From: a virus
UHGV virus genome: UHGV-0274038
Strand: one strand, 5' to 3'
DNA length: 24,177 nucleotides
Part shown: piece after piece, positions 1 to 20,253 of the stretch
How positions within the stretch are numbered: position 1 is the stretch's first letter
Layout of the letters: each line of letters opens with the position of its first letter
Translations under genes and position numbers: made by a program
Notes under the pieces: generated by a model
The model's database searches: none
Told to the model about the DNA's origin: nothing
The model's input: only the letters and a program-made list of their open reading frames with translations

Positions 1-100
1 CGAAATGTTTTATAACAGTAAGCGTCGGCATGGTTCTAGCGAACAGATGTCACCGACAGAATATGAAAACCAGTATTATCAACGGCTCGGAAGTGTCTAG
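1..100 (+). CDS. IS3-family (rve/DDE) transposase, C-terminal end only; 5' part lies outside the window
   Basis: Frame 2 reads ...FYNSKRRHGSSEQMSPTEYENQYYQRLGSV then stop at 98..100. The YN-x-RRH ... SP-x-E-[FY]-EN pattern resembles the C-terminus of IS3-group OrfB transposases. Exact IS identity not determined. Confidence 0.55.
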   Translation, partial: EMFYNSKRRHGSSEQMSPTEYENQYYQRLGSV

Positions 101-150
101 ATTATCCGTGGCGATTCAAGACGCAGTCTTTCCCAGAATGCACTTAGCCA
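1..150 (+). mobile_element. Right end of an IS3-family insertion sequence; right boundary approximate (about 135..152)
   Basis: Transposase stop at 100 followed by about 50 nt ending ...CTTAGCCA(CA), consistent with the TG...CA termini of IS3-family elements. Immediately abuts an ORF that is open upstream into the IS. Confidence 0.45.
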
Positions 151-151
151 C

Positions 152-451
152 ATGTGGTACAGCGAAATCAGTGAATACCTCATAAGCAGGGGGAAATCGT
201 TCGCTACTGCAGCATGGGTAAAAGATGCTCTCAAACACACATACCTCGGTTATGAAACCAAAGACCTGGTTGATGTCGTAACCGGTGAAATCACCACTAT
301 TCAGTCGTTACGCCATACCTCCGATCTTGATACCGGAGAGATGTATGTCTTCCTGTGTAAGGTTGAAGCCTGGGCGATGAATATTGGCTGCCACCTGACT
401 ATTCCGCCGAGCTGCGAGTTCCAGCTGCTGCGCGACAAGCAGGAGGCGTAA
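152..451 (+). pseudogene. ybcN-like nin-region gene, C-terminal fragment; apparently truncated at its 5' end by the IS
   Basis: The 99-codon ORF sits directly upstream of ninE-ybcO-rusA, the position ybcN holds in DLP12. The reading frame stays open upstream to the transposase stop at 98..100, so the first ATG at 152 is probably not the native start. Family assignment is by synteny only. Confidence 0.45.
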
Positions 452-621
452 TGGCTACACCGCTTATTCGTGTCATGAATGGGCACATTTACAGAGTACC
501 AAATCGTCGTAAGCGTAAACCTGAGCTGAAGCCTTCCGAAATACCAACACTGCTCGGATATACCGCCAGCCTGGTTGATAAAAAATGGTTGCGACTGGCA
601 GCAAGGAGGAATCATGGCTGA
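451..621 (+). CDS. ninE: NinE-like small basic protein (56 aa)
   Basis: Translation MATPLIRVMNGHIYRVPNRRKRKP...[16 protein letters not shown]. Size, basic composition and position between the ybcN-like gene and ybcO match NinE. Start overlaps the upstream stop (TAATG); end overlaps the ybcO start. Confidence 0.55.
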   Translation: MATPLIRVMNGHIYRVPNRRKRKPELKPSEIPTLLGYTASLVDKKWLRLAARRNHG

Positions 622-904
622 TTTGAGAAAAGCAGCGCGTGGTCGGGAATGCCAGGTAAGAATCCCTGGCGTATGTAATGGCAACCCTGAAACGTCTGTA
701 CTGGCACATATCCGGCTGGCTGGATTGTGCGGCACCGGTATTAAACCGCCAGACCTTATTGCCACCATTGCCTGTTCTGCCTGTCACGACGAAATCGACC
801 GCCGCACGCATTTTGTCGATGCTGAGTACGCAAAAGAATGCGCGCTGGAAGGTATGGCGAGAACGCAGGTTATCTGGCTGAAAGAGGGGGTTATTAAGGC
901 GTGA
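614..904 (+). CDS. ybcO: YbcO (DUF1364) putative nuclease, 96 aa
   Basis: [42 protein letters not shown]...[14 protein letters not shown] with Cys/His-rich motifs. Recognised from recall of DLP12 YbcO. The six-frame ORF begins 13 codons earlier; ATG at 614 chosen. Confidence 0.8.
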
Positions 905-1263
905 ATACCTACAGCATCACATTACCCTGGCCTCCGAGCAATAATCGCTATTACCGCCATAATCGCGGGCGCACGCACGTCAGCGCAGAGGGGCAGGCAT
1001 ACCGCGATAACGTCGCCCGAATCATTAAAAACGCAATGCTGGATATCGGCCTGGCTATGCCTGTGAAAATCCGCATTGAGTGCCACATGCCGGATCGCCG
1101 TCGCCGTGACCTGGATAATCTGCAAAAAGCCGCTTTTGACGCACTCACTAAAGCAGGTTTCTGGCTGGATGATGCTCAGGTCGTTGATTACCGCGTTGTG
1201 AAGATGCCTGTTACCAAAGGTGGGAGGCTGGAACTGACCATCACCGAAATGGGGAATGAATGA
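901..1263 (+). CDS. rusA: RusA Holliday-junction resolvase, 120 aa
   Basis: [38 protein letters not shown]... matches recalled RusA. GTG start overlaps the ybcO stop. Confidence 0.9.
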
Positions 1264-1400
1264 TGTTTGAGTTTTATATGGCAGAACTTCTTCGCCACCG
1301 CTGGGGGCATCTGCGCTTATATCGTTTCCCCGGTTCTGTTTTGACCGATTACCGAATACTGAAGAATTACGCCAAAACCCTGACAGGAGCAGGAGTATGA
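1260..1400 (+). CDS. ylcG: YlcG-like small protein, 46 aa
   Basis: [52 protein letters not shown] start overlaps the rusA stop. Position between rusA and Q as in DLP12. Confidence 0.65.
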
Positions 1401-1485: not shown

Positions 1486-1869
1486 ATGCGTGATATTCAG
1501 ATGGTTCTTGAGCGTTGGGGAGCGTGGGCGGCTAATAATCATGAAGATGTGACCTGGTCGTCCATTGCCGCCGGTTTTAAGGGATTAATTCCTTCAAAAG
1601 TAAAATCTCGCCCGCAATGTTGTGACGATGACGCGATGATCATTTGCGGGTGCATGGCCCGTCTGAAAAAGAACAACAGCGATTTGCACGATTTATTAGT
1701 AGATTATTATGTAGTCGGTATGACATTCATGTCACTGGCAGGTAAGCATTGCTGCTCTGATGGTTATATCGGGAAAAGGTTACAAAAGGCTGAGGGCATA
1801 ATTGAAGGGATGTTAATGGCATTAGATATCCGGTTAGAGATGGATATCGTTGTTAATAACTCTAATTAA
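1486..1869 (+). CDS. Q: Late-gene antiterminator Q (phage-21/DLP12 QuuD-like), 127 aa
   Basis: [26 protein letters not shown]...[16 protein letters not shown]... is the last gene of the nin module before the lysis region. ATG at 1486 preferred over the upstream TTG at 1471 used by the ORF track. Confidence 0.8.
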
Positions 1870-2057: not shown

Positions 2058-3140
2058 TTAGAACTGGTAAACCATACCTACAGCAACGATATCATCGGTA
2101 GCAACGCCAGATGCTTTCGTGAAATCGCTCTTATCAATCAGGTTGATTTTGTAGTCAACAAAAGTGGACATATTTTTGTTGAAGTAATAGGTTGCACCTA
2201 CATCAACATATTCAACCAGGTCCTGATCACCCCAAACACCCAAGTCTTTTCCTTTAGAATGCAGGTAAGCAACGGATGGACGCAGGCCGAAGTCGAACTG
2301 ATATTGTGCAACAGCTTCGAAGTTTTGTGCTTTGTTGGCAATATGGTTATTACCAAAAACAGTCATGTTCTGGGTTTCAGAATAGGTGGTGGCCAGATAG
2401 ATGTTGTTCGCATCATATTTCAGACCAGCTGCCCATACTTCAGCATTTTGACCAGAAGCATTCAGACCGTTGTTACCGTAGATAACCTGATTATTAGTGC
2501 GATCAGATTTAGCATAGGTTGCACCCACGCCGAATCCTTCATACTCATAAGTAGTTGAGAAACCGAAACCATCGCCATTAGCTTCAGTTACTTCATTTCG
2601 GTCATTTTTGCCCTGATACTGAGCTGCAAAGTTCAGGCCATCAACCAGACCAAAGAAGTCGTTGTTACGATAAGTTGCAACACCTGTGGTGCGACCAGTC
2701 ATGAATACATCTGTTTGGGTCCAGGTATCGCCACCGAATTCTGGCAGAACGTCGGTCCATGCACCAATATCGTATGCTACACCGTAGTTACGGCCATAAT
2801 CGATGGAGCCGTAGTCACCGAATTTCAGGCCAGCGAAGGCAAGACGGGTTTTATCTTTGGAGGAACCTTGAGATTCAGCGCGGTTGCCTTTGAATTCATA
2901 TTCCCACTGACCGAAACCAGTCAGTTGATCGTTGATTTGGGTTTCACCTTTGAAGCCAAGACGGGCATAAGTAGTATCACCATCATCTGCATCATTAGAG
3001 GAGAAGTAGTGCTTAGCATTAACTTTCCCGTACAGATCCAGCTTGTTACTGTCTTTATTATAAATTTCAGCTGCCTGAGCAGACATCGCCATCAGTACTG
3101 ATGCAGCTACAGCAGAAATTGCCACTGTTAATTTTTTCAT
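2058..3140 (-). CDS. nmpC: Outer-membrane general porin, NmpC/OmpD/OmpC family (360 aa), prophage moron
   Basis: Signal peptide [23 protein letters not shown] then AEIYNKD...; aromatic-rich beta-strand pattern and C-terminal ...VAVGMVYQF typical of 16-strand porins. Antisense to the phage genes, between Q and the lysis cassette as in DLP12. Confidence 0.9.
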
Positions 3141-3504
3141 CGTGAGCCCTTTTTTTTGAACTATTATTAAAAAATGATGTCACTGCGCGATAAATATTCA
3201 TCTAATCAATGTGATTATTTCAAGATGTAAGTTTTGGTTTCTCGTTTAATTTGTGAAGTAGATCTCTATTTTTATCTGAACTTTTTTCTATCGAATCCTA
3301 TTCATGGCTCTTGGCTGAATAAAAATAAATCTATTAGCCAATTTATATTAATGGCTGTTATTTATAAGTGCTCTATAATTTGAAGGTTCAATTTAAATTG
3401 GCTAAAAATAACGCTGGAAATTATTTGTTGGTTATTTGTTGAGATTTGCTTATGTATTTGTAGTGGTGTTTTCAATACTCGGTAGCATTCTCGCAAATAT
3501 CATT

Positions 3505-4937: not shown

Positions 4938-5086
4938 ACATCTGAATTTCACAGCGCATCTCACGCGCATATTACATCACCCGAGCCTTTCAGAAAGTTG
5001 AGCCTGAGAACTGCCGTATATGGTGGCGACCATCTCGGGGCGGCTTTTCTGTGAGACAGGCTCACTTTCTAAAAGGTAAAGACGCT

Positions 5087-5575
5087 ATGAACCAATTAGA
5101 AGAAAAGCTTCAAAGAATGATTTCCTTATACAAGGAAGATAACTGCCAAAAAGTTCCTGAAAACATCGCAGAGTTAATGGAATTGGCAAGTGAATTTTCT
5201 GGCATGCTTAAGTCGTCAGGTGTTCGGTCAGCGTTCTTTGTTGAAATGCTGATGCACGGCGGACTTATGGCAACAATGAGACGTGTAATGGAAGACCAGA
5301 GAAAAGAACCTCCTCAGGTATACGTTTTGTCATCGAAGAAAACTGGGCTAACCAAAATTGGGTATTCATCCAACATTCCACAACGCATCAAATCGCTTGG
5401 CAACTCTGGACCAGACTGCTTGAAGCTTGAGTGCCTGATCCCTGGTGGAAGAGAAACTGAAAACATGCTTCATCGCAAATTTGCCGCAAAGAGAAAGCAC
5501 GGTGAATGGTTCGCCCTGTCCAAGGATGACATTGAGGGATTGAAATCTGTAGCGATTACTTCTGATGGCTATTAA
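5087..5575 (+). CDS. Accessory protein with C-terminal T5orf172 (GIY-YIG-like) nuclease domain and unrecognised helical N-terminal domain (162 aa)
   Basis: C-terminal half QVYVLSSKKTGLTKIGYSSNIPQRIKSLGN...ENMLHRKFAAKRKHGEWFALSKDD fits the T5orf172/Mug113 pattern (YVL...GL-KIG-S...R...E-LH-F...GEWF). N-terminal about 85 aa has no family I recognise. ATG at 5087 with AAAGG upstream; the ORF-track start at 5051 is non-ATG. Confidence 0.65.
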   Translation: MNQLEEKLQRMISLYKEDNCQKVPENIAELMELASEFSGMLKSSGVRSAFFVEMLMHGGLMATMRRVMEDQRKEPPQVYVLSSKKTGLTKIGYSSNIPQRIKSLGNSGPDCLKLECLIPGGRETENMLHRKFAAKRKHGEWFALSKDDIEGLKSVAITSDGY

Positions 5576-7889: not shown

Positions 7890-11570
<3,681 letters not shown>

Positions 11571-17283: not shown

Positions 17284-17699
17284 GTTTTGCCCTGAAACTG
17301 GCGCGAGAGATGGGGCGACCCGACTGGCGTGCCATGCTTGCCGGGATGTCATCCACGGAGTATGCCGACTGGCACCGCTTTTACAGTACCCATTATTTTC
17401 ATGATGTTCTGCTGGATATGCACTTTTCCGGGCTGACGTACACCGTGCTCAGCCTGTTTTTCAGCGATCCGGATATGCATCCGCTGGATTTCAGTCTGCT
17501 TAACCGGCGCGAGGCTGACGAAGAGCCTGAAGATGATGTGCTGATGCAGAAAGCGGCAGGGCTTGCCGGAGGTGTCCGCTTTGGCCCGGACGGGAATGAA
17601 GTTATCCCCGCTTCCCCGGATGTGGCGGACATGACGGAGGATGACGTAATGCTGATGACAGTATCAGAAGGGATCGCAGGAGGAGTCCGGTATGGCTGA
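16861..17699 (+). CDS. GT: Tail assembly protein G-T, fusion made by -1 frameshift at 17259..17265
   Basis: The -1 frame ORF 17265..17699 (MFDGELSFALKLAREMGRPDWRAMLAGMSSTEYADWHRFY...) corresponds to the lambda T region and has no independent ribosome-binding site. Confidence 0.85.
17259..17265 (+). other. Programmed -1 ribosomal frameshift slippery heptamer G GGA AAG (G to G-T)
   Basis: GGGAAAG at 17259..17265 lies in the G frame as G-GGA-AAG. The -1 frame from here is open to 17699 (T region). Confidence 0.85.
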
Positions 17700-20253
17700 A
17701 CCGGTAGGCGATCTGGTCGTTGATTTAAGTCTGGATGCGGCCAGATTTGACGAGCAGATGGCCAGAGTCAGGCGTCATTTTTCCGGTACGGAAACTGATG
17801 CGAAAAAAACAGCGGCAGTCGTTGAACAGTCGCTGAGCCGACAGGCGCTGGCTGCACAGAAAGCGGGGATTTCCGTCGGGCAGTATAAAGCCGCCATGCG
17901 TATGCTGCCTGCACAGTTCACCGACGTGGCCACGCAGCTTGCAGGCGGGCAAAGCCCGTGGCTGATCCTGCTGCAACAGGGGGGTCAGGTGAAGGACTCC
18001 TTCGGCGGGATGATCCCCATGTTCCGGGGGCTTGCCGGTGCGATCACCCTGCCGATGGTGGGGGCCACCTCGCTGGCGGTGGCGACCGGTGCGCTGGCGT
18101 ATGCCTGGTATCAGGGCAACTCAACCCTGTCCGATTTCAACAAAACGCTGGTCCTTTCCGGCAATCAGGCCGGGCTGACGGCAGATCGTATGCTGGTCCT
18201 GTCCAGAGCCGGGCAGGCGGCAGGGCTGACGTTTAACCAGACCAGCGAGTCACTCAGTGCACTGGTTAAGGCGGGGGTAAGTGGTGAGGCTCAGATTGCG
18301 TCCATCAGCCAGAGTGTGGCGCGTTTCTCTTCTGCATCCGGTGTGGAGGTGGACAAGGTCGCTGAAGCCTTCGGGAAGCTGACCACTGACCCGACGTCGG
18401 GGCTGACGGCGATGGCGCGCCAGTTCCATAACGTGACGGCGGAGCAGATTGCGTATGTTGCTCAGTTGCAGCGTTCCGGCGATGAAGCCGGGGCATTGCA
18501 GGCGGCGAACGAAGCCGCAACGAAAGGGTTTGATGACCAGACCCGCCGCCTGAAAGAGAACATGGGCACGCTGGAGACCTGGGCAGACAGGATAGCGCGG
18601 GCATTCAAATCCATGTGGGATGCGGTGCTGGATATTGGTCGTCCTGATACCGCGCAGGAGATGCTGATTAAGGCAGAGGCTGCGTTTAAGAAAGCAGACG
18701 ACATCTGGAATCTGCGCAAGGATGATTATTTTGTTAACGATGAAGCGCGGGCGCGTTACTGGGATGATCGTGAAAAGGCCCGTCTTGCGCTTGAAGCCGC
18801 CCGAAAGAAGGCTGAGCAGCAGACTCAACAGGACAAAAATGCGCAGCAGCAGAGCGATACCGAAGCGTCACGGCTGAAATATACCGAAGAGGCGCAGAAG
18901 GCTTACGAACGGCTGCAGACGCCGCTGGAGAAATATACCGCCCGTCAGGAAGAACTGAACAAGGCACTGAAAGACGGGAAAATCCTGCAGGCGGATTACA
19001 ACACGCTGATGGCGGCGGCGAAAAAGGATTATGAAGCGACGCTGAAAAAGCCGAAACAGTCCGGCGTGAAGGTGTCTGCGGGCGATCGTCAGGAAGACAG
19101 TGCTCATGCTGCCCTGCTGACGCTTCAGGCAGAACTCCGGACGCTGGAGAAGCATGCCGGAGCGAATGAGAAAATCAGCCAGCAGCGCCGGGATTTGTGG
19201 AAGGCGGAGAGTCAGTTCGCGGTACTGGAGGAGGCGGCGCAACGTCGCCAGCTGTCTGCACAGGAGAAATCCCTGCTGGCGCATAAAGATGAGACGCTGG
19301 AGTACAAACGCCAGCTGGCTGCACTTGGCGACAAGGTTACGTATCAGGAGCGCCTGAACGCGCTGGCGCAGCAGGCGGATAAATTCGCACAGCAGCAACG
19401 GGCAAAACGGGCCGCCATTGATGCGAAAAGCCGGGGGCTGACTGACCGGCAGGCAGAACGGGAAGCCACGGAACAGCGCCTGAAGGAACAGTATGGCGAT
19501 AATCCGCTGGCGCTGAATAACGTCATGTCAGAGCAGAAAAAGACCTGGGCGGCTGAAGACCAGCTTCGCGGGAGCTGGATGGCAGGCCTGAAGTCCGGCT
19601 GGAGTGAGTGGGAAGAGAGCGCCACGGACAGTATGTCGCAGGTTAAAAGTGCAGCCACGCAGACCTTTGATGGTATTGCACAGAATATGGCGGCGATGCT
19701 GACCGGCAGTGAGCAGAACTGGCGCAGCTTCACCCGTTCCGTGCTGTCCATGATGACAGAAATTCTGCTTAAGCAGGCAATGGTGGGGATTGTCGGGAGT
19801 ATCGGCAGCGCCATTGGCGGTGCTGCCAGTGGTGGAGCATCCGCGTCAGGCGGTACAGCCATTCAGGCCGCTGCGGCGAAATTCCATTTTGCGACCGGGG
19901 GATTTACGGGAACCGGCGGCAAATATGAGCCAGCGGGGATTGTTCACCGTGGTGAATTTGTCTTCACGAAGGAGGCAACCAGCCGGATTGGTGTCGGCAA
20001 CCTGTACCGCCTGATGCGGGGCTATGCGGAAGGTGGTTATGTGGGCGGTGCCGGAAGTCCGGCGCAGATGCGGCGGGCTGAAGGCATTAATTTTAATCAG
20101 AACAATCACGTGGTGATTCAGAACGACGGTACGAATGGTCTGCCAGGTCCACAGATGATGAAGGCAGTGTATGACATGGCCCGCAAGGGTGCCCGTGATG
20201 AAATTCAGACACAGATGCGTGATGGTGGCCTGTTCTCCGGAGGTGGACGATGA
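17692..20253 (+). CDS. H: Tail tape-measure protein H (853 aa)
   Basis: 853-aa ORF, MAEPVGDLVVDLSLDAARFDEQMARVRRHFSGTETDAKK... with long coiled-coil central region; lambda gpH. Confidence 0.95.
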   Translation: MAEPVGDLVVDLSLDAARFDEQMARVRRHFSGTETDAKKTAAVVEQSLSRQALAAQKAGISVGQYKAAMRMLPAQFTDVATQLAGGQSPWLILLQQGGQVKDSFGGMIPMFRGLAGAITLPMVGATSLAVATGALAYAWYQGNSTLSDFNKTLVLSGNQAGLTADRMLVLSRAGQAAGLTFNQTSESLSALVKAGVSGEAQIASISQSVARFSSASGVEVDKVAEAFGKLTTDPTSGLTAMARQFHNVTAEQIAYVAQLQRSGDEAGALQAANEAATKGFDDQTRRLKENMGTLETWADRIARAFKSMWDAVLDIGRPDTAQEMLIKAEAAFKKADDIWNLRKDDYFVNDEARARYWDDREKARLALEAARKKAEQQTQQDKNAQQQSDTEASRLKYTEEAQKAYERLQTPLEKYTARQEELNKALKDGKILQADYNTLMAAAKKDYEATLKKPKQSGVKVSAGDRQEDSAHAALLTLQAELRTLEKHAGANEKISQQRRDLWKAESQFAVLEEAAQRRQLSAQEKSLLAHKDETLEYKRQLAALGDKVTYQERLNALAQQADKFAQQQRAKRAAIDAKSRGLTDRQAEREATEQRLKEQYGDNPLALNNVMSEQKKTWAAEDQLRGSWMAGLKSGWSEWEESATDSMSQVKSAATQTFDGIAQNMAAMLTGSEQNWRSFTRSVLSMMTEILLKQAMVGIVGSIGSAIGGAASGGASASGGTAIQAAAAKFHFATGGFTGTGGKYEPAGIVHRGEFVFTKEATSRIGVGNLYRLMRGYAEGGYVGGAGSPAQMRRAEGINFNQNNHVVIQNDGTNGLPGPQMMKAVYDMARKGARDEIQTQMRDGGLFSGGGR

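Follow-up and report, generated by a model that had tools for sequence, protein, structure and literature searches.

An ISEhe3-type insertion sequence end truncates ybcN in a lambdoid prophage and is a probable rearrangement breakpoint

The insertion sequence end and the truncated ybcN gene

The window (the whole 24,177-nt stretch of the UHGV virus genome UHGV-0274038 that was analyzed) begins inside an insertion sequence (IS) of the IS3 family, and the end of this element runs directly into the gene ybcN. Window positions 1-118 are the right end of a 1,229-bp element and match positions 9850-9967 of a JGI contig, denoted L003, with 0 mismatches. A complete copy of the same IS occupies L003:8739-9967. 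The following features were identified at this end of the window.

1..118, + strand: right (3') end of an ISEhe3-type IS3-family IS, by identity to L003:9850-9967; also found in genome G4/9 at L002:1891-3119
2..100, + strand: last 32 codons of orfB (DDE/rve transposase) and its TAG stop, from the translation and Pfam rve_2
93..118, + strand: right terminal inverted repeat (IRR) GTGTCTAGATTATCCGTGGCGATTCA, 26 bp, ending in ...TTCA with the CA typical of the family
118..119, no strand: point at which the IS terminus meets ybcN codon 42, from a three-way alignment; right flank AGA
119..451, + strand: 5'-truncated ybcN of the Orf/NinB family, codons 42-151 and stop, annotated here as a pseudogene; covers positions 42-151/151 of NF007281 PRK09741
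152..451, + strand: 99-aa open reading frame (ORF) from the internal Met53 of ybcN, with no Shine-Dalgarno sequence upstream

A preliminary description of this DNA, made from the sequence alone, had recognized the end of an rve-type transposase with its stop at 98..100. This reading was borne out. Window 2-97 translates as EMFYNSKRRHGSSEQMSPTEYENQYYQRLGSV, followed by TAG at 98-100, which corresponds to the last 32 codons and stop of orfB. The match of window 2-97 alone to Pfam rve_2 was below threshold (E=0.0011, 19.5 bits vs a cutoff of 22); the full OrfB in L003 scored 361 bits on NF033516, the NCBIfam equivalog for IS3-family transposases, with an rve match of 1.5e-33. The reverse complement of the IRR, TGAATCGCCACGGATAATCTAGACAC, and the left terminal inverted repeat (IRL), TGAATCGCCACGGGTTTAACAGACAC, are imperfect repeats that are identical over their first 13 nt and give the element TG...CA ends. 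OrfA lies outside the window and was read in L003, where it is 92 aa long and has an HTH_Tnp_1 match (1.7e-19). An A7G slippery site, AAAAAAAG, was found at L003:9041; in the same contig, orfB has an open frame that extends from 8963 to 9946. The copy of the IS in G4/9 carries the RefSeq annotation 'programmed frameshift'.

The original description of ISEhe3, a member of the IS3 family, comes from pPATH of Pantoea agglomerans, and the element is widespread in enterobacterial plasmids and in Shigella. The IS at the window end is probably ISEhe3, a name that follows from the label given in source databases to the exact OrfA sequence ('ISEhe3 transposase A' or 'ISEhe3 orfA'). The likeness extends to the length of 1,229 bp, the TG...CA ends, the 92-aa HTH-containing OrfA, the A7G -1 frameshift site, the rve-type OrfB, and the 3-bp target duplication made by the G4/9 copy. 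The copy analyzed here differs in having flanks that do not match, and just its last 118 bp lie inside the window. The IS had matches in 2,739 plasmid records of enterobacteria, including 702 in which at least 80% of its length was covered; the hosts were Escherichia, Klebsiella, Enterobacter, Pantoea, and others. A 92-aa ISEhe3 orfA has also been annotated in Shigella genomes (PMC4924310), and plasmid pT5282-Ct2 (MF344574) has been reported as a carrier of ISEhe3 (PMC6872532).

The boundary between positions 118 and 119 is a precise junction of an IS terminus with its target, not a chance pattern. In a megablast search against 5,426 complete E. coli genomes, IS-free homology began exactly at base 119. 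This base is nt 124 of the 456-nt (151-aa) ybcN gene in the prophage of E. coli strain F467, i.e., the first base of codon 42, and 41 of the 151 codons are missing from the 5' end of the gene in the window. The intact YbcN of F467 matches PRK09741 (NF007281) over positions 1-151, whereas window 119-448 covers just 42-151 of the 151 positions, and the Pfam NinB match of the remnant starts at profile position 38/131. From base 119 onward, the window and F467 showed one difference in the first 4,182 nt, at position 3431.

The preliminary description had further noted that the ORF starting at 152 stays open back to the transposase stop, and had proposed that the IS replaced the native 5' end of the gene. 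Both points held. The transposase and ybcN share a reading frame, which stays open after the TAG, from 101 through 451; its first six codons (IIRGDS) are contributed by the IS and lead directly into YbcN R42. There was no ATG, GTG, or TTG in this frame between 101 and 151, and the first start is the ATG at 152 (Met53). The loss of codons 1-41, together with a Met53 start that has no Shine-Dalgarno sequence, indicates that ybcN is a 5'-truncated pseudogene, and its function has presumably been lost. Read-through of the transposase stop would produce a transposase-IIRGDS-YbcN(42-151) fusion; the shared frame is most likely a 1-in-3 coincidence.

The arrangement that would speak for an undamaged gene, an intact ybcN with the IS lying wholly upstream of it, is absent from the window and is seen in the unrelated E. 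coli strain G4/9 (NZ_CP060073.1). In that genome the same IS, ~98% identical, has the same orientation and lies in the same prophage neighborhood (L002:1891-3119). It differs in that it is flanked by a TCT duplication and stops 36 bp short of an intact ybcN; it represents an independent simple insertion that truncates nothing. The 3-bp TCT duplication indicates that the element normally duplicates its target. Since G4/9 was the only other case of the IS near ybcN in the 5,426 complete genomes, there is no evidence of an insertion hotspot.

The prophage late region downstream of the junction

The region downstream of the truncated gene contains a nin module, a late antiterminator gene, lysis genes, and the morphogenesis genes up to J. 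The features named in the analysis are listed below.

451..621, + strand: ninE (Pfam NinE), with an ATG that overlaps the ybcN stop and its own AGGAGG
614..904, + strand: ybcO, putative nuclease, DUF1364 (Pfam YbcO, 5.1e-43)
901..1263, + strand: rusA, Holliday-junction resolvase (Pfam RusA, 6.9e-23)
1260..1400, + strand: ylcG (Pfam Phage_YlcG in L003; annotation in F467)
1486..1869, + strand: quuD, Q-type late antiterminator (L003:11335-11718, Pfam Phage_antitermQ; quuD in F467)
2058-3140, - strand: prophage porin gene, nmpC/ompC-like, 360 aa, intact
5051-5575, + strand: gene with a T5orf172/MUG113 domain (GIY-YIG nuclease in the F467 annotation)
17692-20253, + strand: tape-measure protein, 853 aa
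22655-24177, + strand: gpJ, open for 507 codons and running off the right end of the window

We compared this region with the F467 prophage and found that window 119-24177 aligned as one collinear block of 24,070 nt with 98.3% identity. In F467, the early genes are arranged in the order intD, exo/bet/gam, immunity genes, O/P, emrE, a hydrolase gene, a ylcH-like gene, and ybcN. From ybcN the order continues with ninE, ybcO, rusA, ylcG, quuD, the porin gene, the lysis genes, Nu1 through J, and the tail fibre genes; past the right end of the prophage, the chromosome continues with appY and ompT. The F467 element is an intact lambdoid prophage of the argU/DLP12 site, and the window belongs to a prophage of the same type, with ybcN as the first gene of the nin module. 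The late half expected of a complete prophage (nin, Q, lysis, and terminase to J) is present and collinear, and all late ORFs from Nu1 through J are open, gpJ remaining open to the window end.

The T5orf172/MUG113 gene sits between the lysis cassette and a DUF1398 gene and looks like a moron.

The order ybcN-ninE-ybcO-rusA-ylcG-quuD-nmpC-essD-rrrD is the same as in DLP12 of K-12, the defective lambdoid prophage at argU. Both prophages also show IS-driven decay, which in K-12 involves an IS3 in renD and an IS5 in nmpC. The two differ in what was retained. In the window the late region is complete, with Nu1 through J open, and the early half has been lost, whereas K-12 lacks most head and tail genes and retains int. 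The nmpC gene of K-12 is split by IS5, whereas the porin gene here is intact. In addition, borD stands in K-12 roughly where the T5orf172/MUG113 gene stands here.

The exact tape-measure sequence was found on only 4 contigs (from JGI and ENA), whereas its 90% cluster has 4,698 members. This suggests that the lineage carrying the junction is rare, and so far it appears in metagenome-type assemblies only.

The other side of the insertion sequence

The preliminary description had proposed extending the sequence leftward to recover the whole IS and comparing its two flanks. Contig L003 (JGI 3300028986 Ga0169616_100026) provides this extension. It is a 177.6-kb metagenome contig that crosses the whole IS and overlaps the window over 10,451 nt with 0 mismatches. 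This reading across the complete element is what is new here. The gene order in L003 is nanC, nanM, nanS, SBD-HNH, mcrB, mcrC, the IS, and the truncated ybcN.

L003:4282-8735 and L005:8183-16908: defense island next to nanCMS, comprising SBD-HNH, McrB, and McrC

SBD-HNH is a 'phosphorothioated DNA-binding restriction endonuclease' and is phosphorothioate-dependent. The IS starts 3 nt past the mcrC stop in L003. An IS-free reference, Res13-Lact-PEA14-20, was 100.0% identical to L003 over the 4.6-kb left flank of the IS and continues past mcrC with a 128-aa ORF that has no family match, followed by hsdM and hsdS. The continuity of this reference past mcrC places the IS of L003 7 nt into the 128-aa ORF. 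At least 80% of the 4.6-kb SBD-HNH/mcrB/mcrC stretch was present in 292 of the 5,426 complete E. coli genomes.

With the mcrC side on its left and ybcN on its right, the IS in L003 has flanks that come from two different loci. The sequence is ...ATGACCC on the left of the element and AGACGC on the right, and no 3-4-bp target-site duplication was found at this copy, the adjoining triplets being CCC and AGA. The missing duplication points to a rearrangement after insertion or to a chimeric assembly, not to an element other than an IS. In the 10 kb upstream of ybcN in L003 there were no phage genes, just nanCMS, SBD-HNH, mcrBC, and the IS; the int, recombination, immunity, and replication genes that a complete prophage would have upstream of ybcN are thus absent on this one metagenome contig. 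These results support the earlier suggestion that the prophage is defective or rearranged, in that the metagenome assembly L003 joins it to a McrBC island flank with no duplication at the IS.

Taken together, we consider it probable that the IS end, which truncates ybcN, marks a rearrangement breakpoint at which the late half of the prophage was detached. The CCC and AGA flanks and the lack of a duplication argue for such a breakpoint rather than a simple insertion. Most likely, one IS copy lay within ybcN and a second immediately past mcrC, and the two underwent homologous recombination; alternatively, the IS may have mediated an intramolecular event. In either case the product would be a nin-Q-porin-lysis-head-tail half that had become separated from O/P and from the int, recombination, and immunity genes. 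With the early half absent at the locus, the element would not be able to excise, replicate, or be induced normally there.

The coordinates of the two arms in K-12 bear on the form of this event. The K-12 genes from nanC to nanS (4.539-4.537 Mb) are on the minus strand, and those from ybcN to rusA (0.572 Mb) are on the plus strand. The joined arms thus point in opposite K-12 directions, which gives the topology of an inversion of ~680 kb and not of a deletion. An inversion is also preferred because a deletion would remove essential genes. We therefore infer an inversion of ~680 kb rather than a deletion, on the assumption that the strain has a K-12-like backbone. An inversion of this size within one replichore would be expected to carry a cost, and this counts against it.

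The evidence on the left flank comes from one short-read-era metagenome contig, the window itself beginning 118 nt inside the IS, and a mis-join of L003 across the 1.2-kb IS repeat is possible. The main alternative makes use of this. Under it, the IS simply transposed between ybcN codons 41 and 42 with a 3-4-bp duplication (AGA or AGAC), the L003 join is a chimeric assembly, and the IS is directly preceded by the 5' fragment of ybcN and the complete early region. The element normally inserts with a 3-bp duplication, as in G4/9, and the undecayed late region, with its open ORFs and 98.3% collinear identity, fits a very recent and minimal event. Furthermore, ENA contig L004 (k127_5855, 24,193 bp), which belongs to the same lineage and is evidently the parent of the window, begins 126 nt inside the IS, i.e., k-1 for k=127. 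This start indicates an assembly break at a repeat and another copy sharing the IS end in that sample, so that at least two copies with this end were present. Against a simple insertion, the left flank in the sole assembly that spans the IS is not phage DNA and matches a real chromosomal island with 100.0% identity over 4.6 kb.

Searches for the junctions bear on both readings. Neither the mcrC-IS nor the IS-ybcN junction was found by megablast in the 5,426 complete E. coli genomes. When genome_contigs, metagenome_contigs, and viral_contigs were scanned for the exact pattern that joins the IS to ybcN codon 42, no match was obtained; these negatives say little, since L003 is evidently absent from the scanned collections. 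The reciprocal junction, in which the 5' part of ybcN meets the IRL with a 0-6-nt spacer, had 0 matches in the viral, metagenome, and genome collections. Likewise, neither of the predicted N-terminal YbcN fragments of 42 aa and 55 aa was present in a collection of 15 billion proteins, in which ORFs so short would rarely have been called. A simple insertion predicts both the reciprocal pattern and the fragments, and their absence counts weakly against it. Overall, we regard simple transposition into ybcN as unlikely, and we retain the breakpoint reading as the preferred one.

Two further candidates were rejected. Some matches, including those in E. coli KSC9, seemed to cross position 118 and proved to be an unrelated IS fragment located between IS1 copies. 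An IR-like target preference was also considered, as an 8-mer, CCGTGGCG, is common to the IS ends and to ybcN left of the breakpoint. A match of this length was reached in 215 of 2,000 shuffles, and at the mcrC site only 5-mers match, so the preference was dismissed as chance.

The KSC9 fragment has a context of its own. It comprises 99 nt of this IS end (L017:7001-7099) and is found in KSC9 and in three genomes like it. There it lies between IS1 copies and next to plasmid-derived genes (stbA, IS26), within a duplicated wcaM-galF region of the O-antigen/colanic acid locus. It is an unrelated mosaic of IS debris.

Expression across the breakpoint and annotation of the remnant

The preliminary description had also suggested that outward-reading IS promoters may drive the downstream genes. 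This did not find support. We found no sigma-70-like site on the + strand in window 1-151, and the number of promoter-like sites in the region equaled the expectation from shuffles. The only promoter-like site on the + strand of the IS is the inward transposase promoter in the IRL (L003:8754-8782). The mcrBC genes, the IS, and the nin genes are co-oriented in L003, and the + strand between them has a single terminator-like site, a short, weak hairpin that falls within orfB (L003:9814-9829). Because of this co-orientation, read-through into the nin genes from the mcrBC or transposase promoters is possible.

In DLP12, rusA is quiescent, and the insertion of IS2 or IS10 upstream of the gene activates it (PMC1636454). 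These rus-1 and rus-2 alleles resemble the present case: the prophage family and its nin module are shared, and an IS upstream of rusA points towards the gene (PMC1636454). They differ in that the elements there are IS2 and IS10 and the element here is of another type with no detectable outward promoter. Moreover, those alleles are ruv suppressors selected in the laboratory, whereas the junction here belongs to a natural gut-metagenome lineage in which activation of rusA is hypothetical. An explanation modeled on these alleles would have the IS act as a mobile promoter, in which an outward or hybrid promoter at its right end drives ninE-ybcO-rusA-quuD and, via Q, the late genes. The resemblance to the IS2/IS10 activation of silent rusA (PMC1636454) favors it, as does the shared direction of the IS, mcrBC, and nin genes with just one weak hairpin between them. 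However, the + strand of 1-151 has no sigma-70-like site, the promoter-like sites of the region do not exceed the shuffle level, and selection would act against unregulated Q, which would turn on lysis. We consider a mobile promoter quite improbable.

A bolder extension of the breakpoint reading is that the fused nin-Q-lysis-morphogenesis block, lying downstream of mcrBC in the same orientation, is a host-controlled module and not mere debris. In such a module, a block without repressor, int, or replication genes would be reached by read-through transcripts from the mcrBC or transposase promoter, leading to low constitutive levels of RusA and Q. It could then serve as a natural rus-type activation of the resolvase or as a domesticated lysis/particle cassette, and the same event may also have inverted the ~680 kb that separate the leuX-side island from the argU prophage in a gut lineage of E. 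coli. We give this idea very little credence.

The protein-coding capacity of the remnant was assessed by comparison with lambda Orf. Arg41, Gln45, Asn46, and Trp50 are the most conserved residues lining the DNA channel of lambda Orf (PMC4118853). In our own alignment these would correspond to R42/R43, Q47, N48, and H52 of YbcN, all of which would be missing from a product that starts at Met53. The remnant therefore does not combine a start codon and ribosome-binding site with the conserved alpha2 channel residues. The exact 99-aa protein was recorded on only 4 contigs (5 were read), all of them metagenome or Logan assemblies. That the ORF at 152-451 encodes a functional short isoform of YbcN is hardly credible: it is intact and predicted by gene callers, and older annotations of other strains contain 99-aa 'DLP12 base-flipping protein' entries, but residues 1-52 of a 151-residue single-domain protein, including the predicted channel residues, are absent, Met53 has no Shine-Dalgarno sequence, and the PRK09741 match from position 42 needs the untranslatable stretch 119-151. 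We conclude that the 99-aa ORF is a gene-caller artifact, for which the correct annotation is a ybcN pseudogene fragment rather than a gene.

That IS elements truncate and rearrange the prophages of E. coli is textbook knowledge, and the event at ybcN is ordinary prophage decay of this known kind. All of its components have already been described: the ISEhe3-type IS, YbcN as a member of the Orf/NinB family, and the lambdoid prophage at the DLP12 site. The importance of the finding beyond correct annotation is small. The 24-kb block is best regarded as the remnant of a prophage, bounded on its left by an IS and not by an attachment site. Both ends of the window, in the IS and in gpJ, are assembly breaks in repeats and do not reflect biological termini, so that completeness or induction of the prophage would be wrongly judged from this contig on its own. 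Should the rearrangement be real, it would add a further example to the well-documented remodeling of E. coli prophages by IS elements, which joins them to defense islands.
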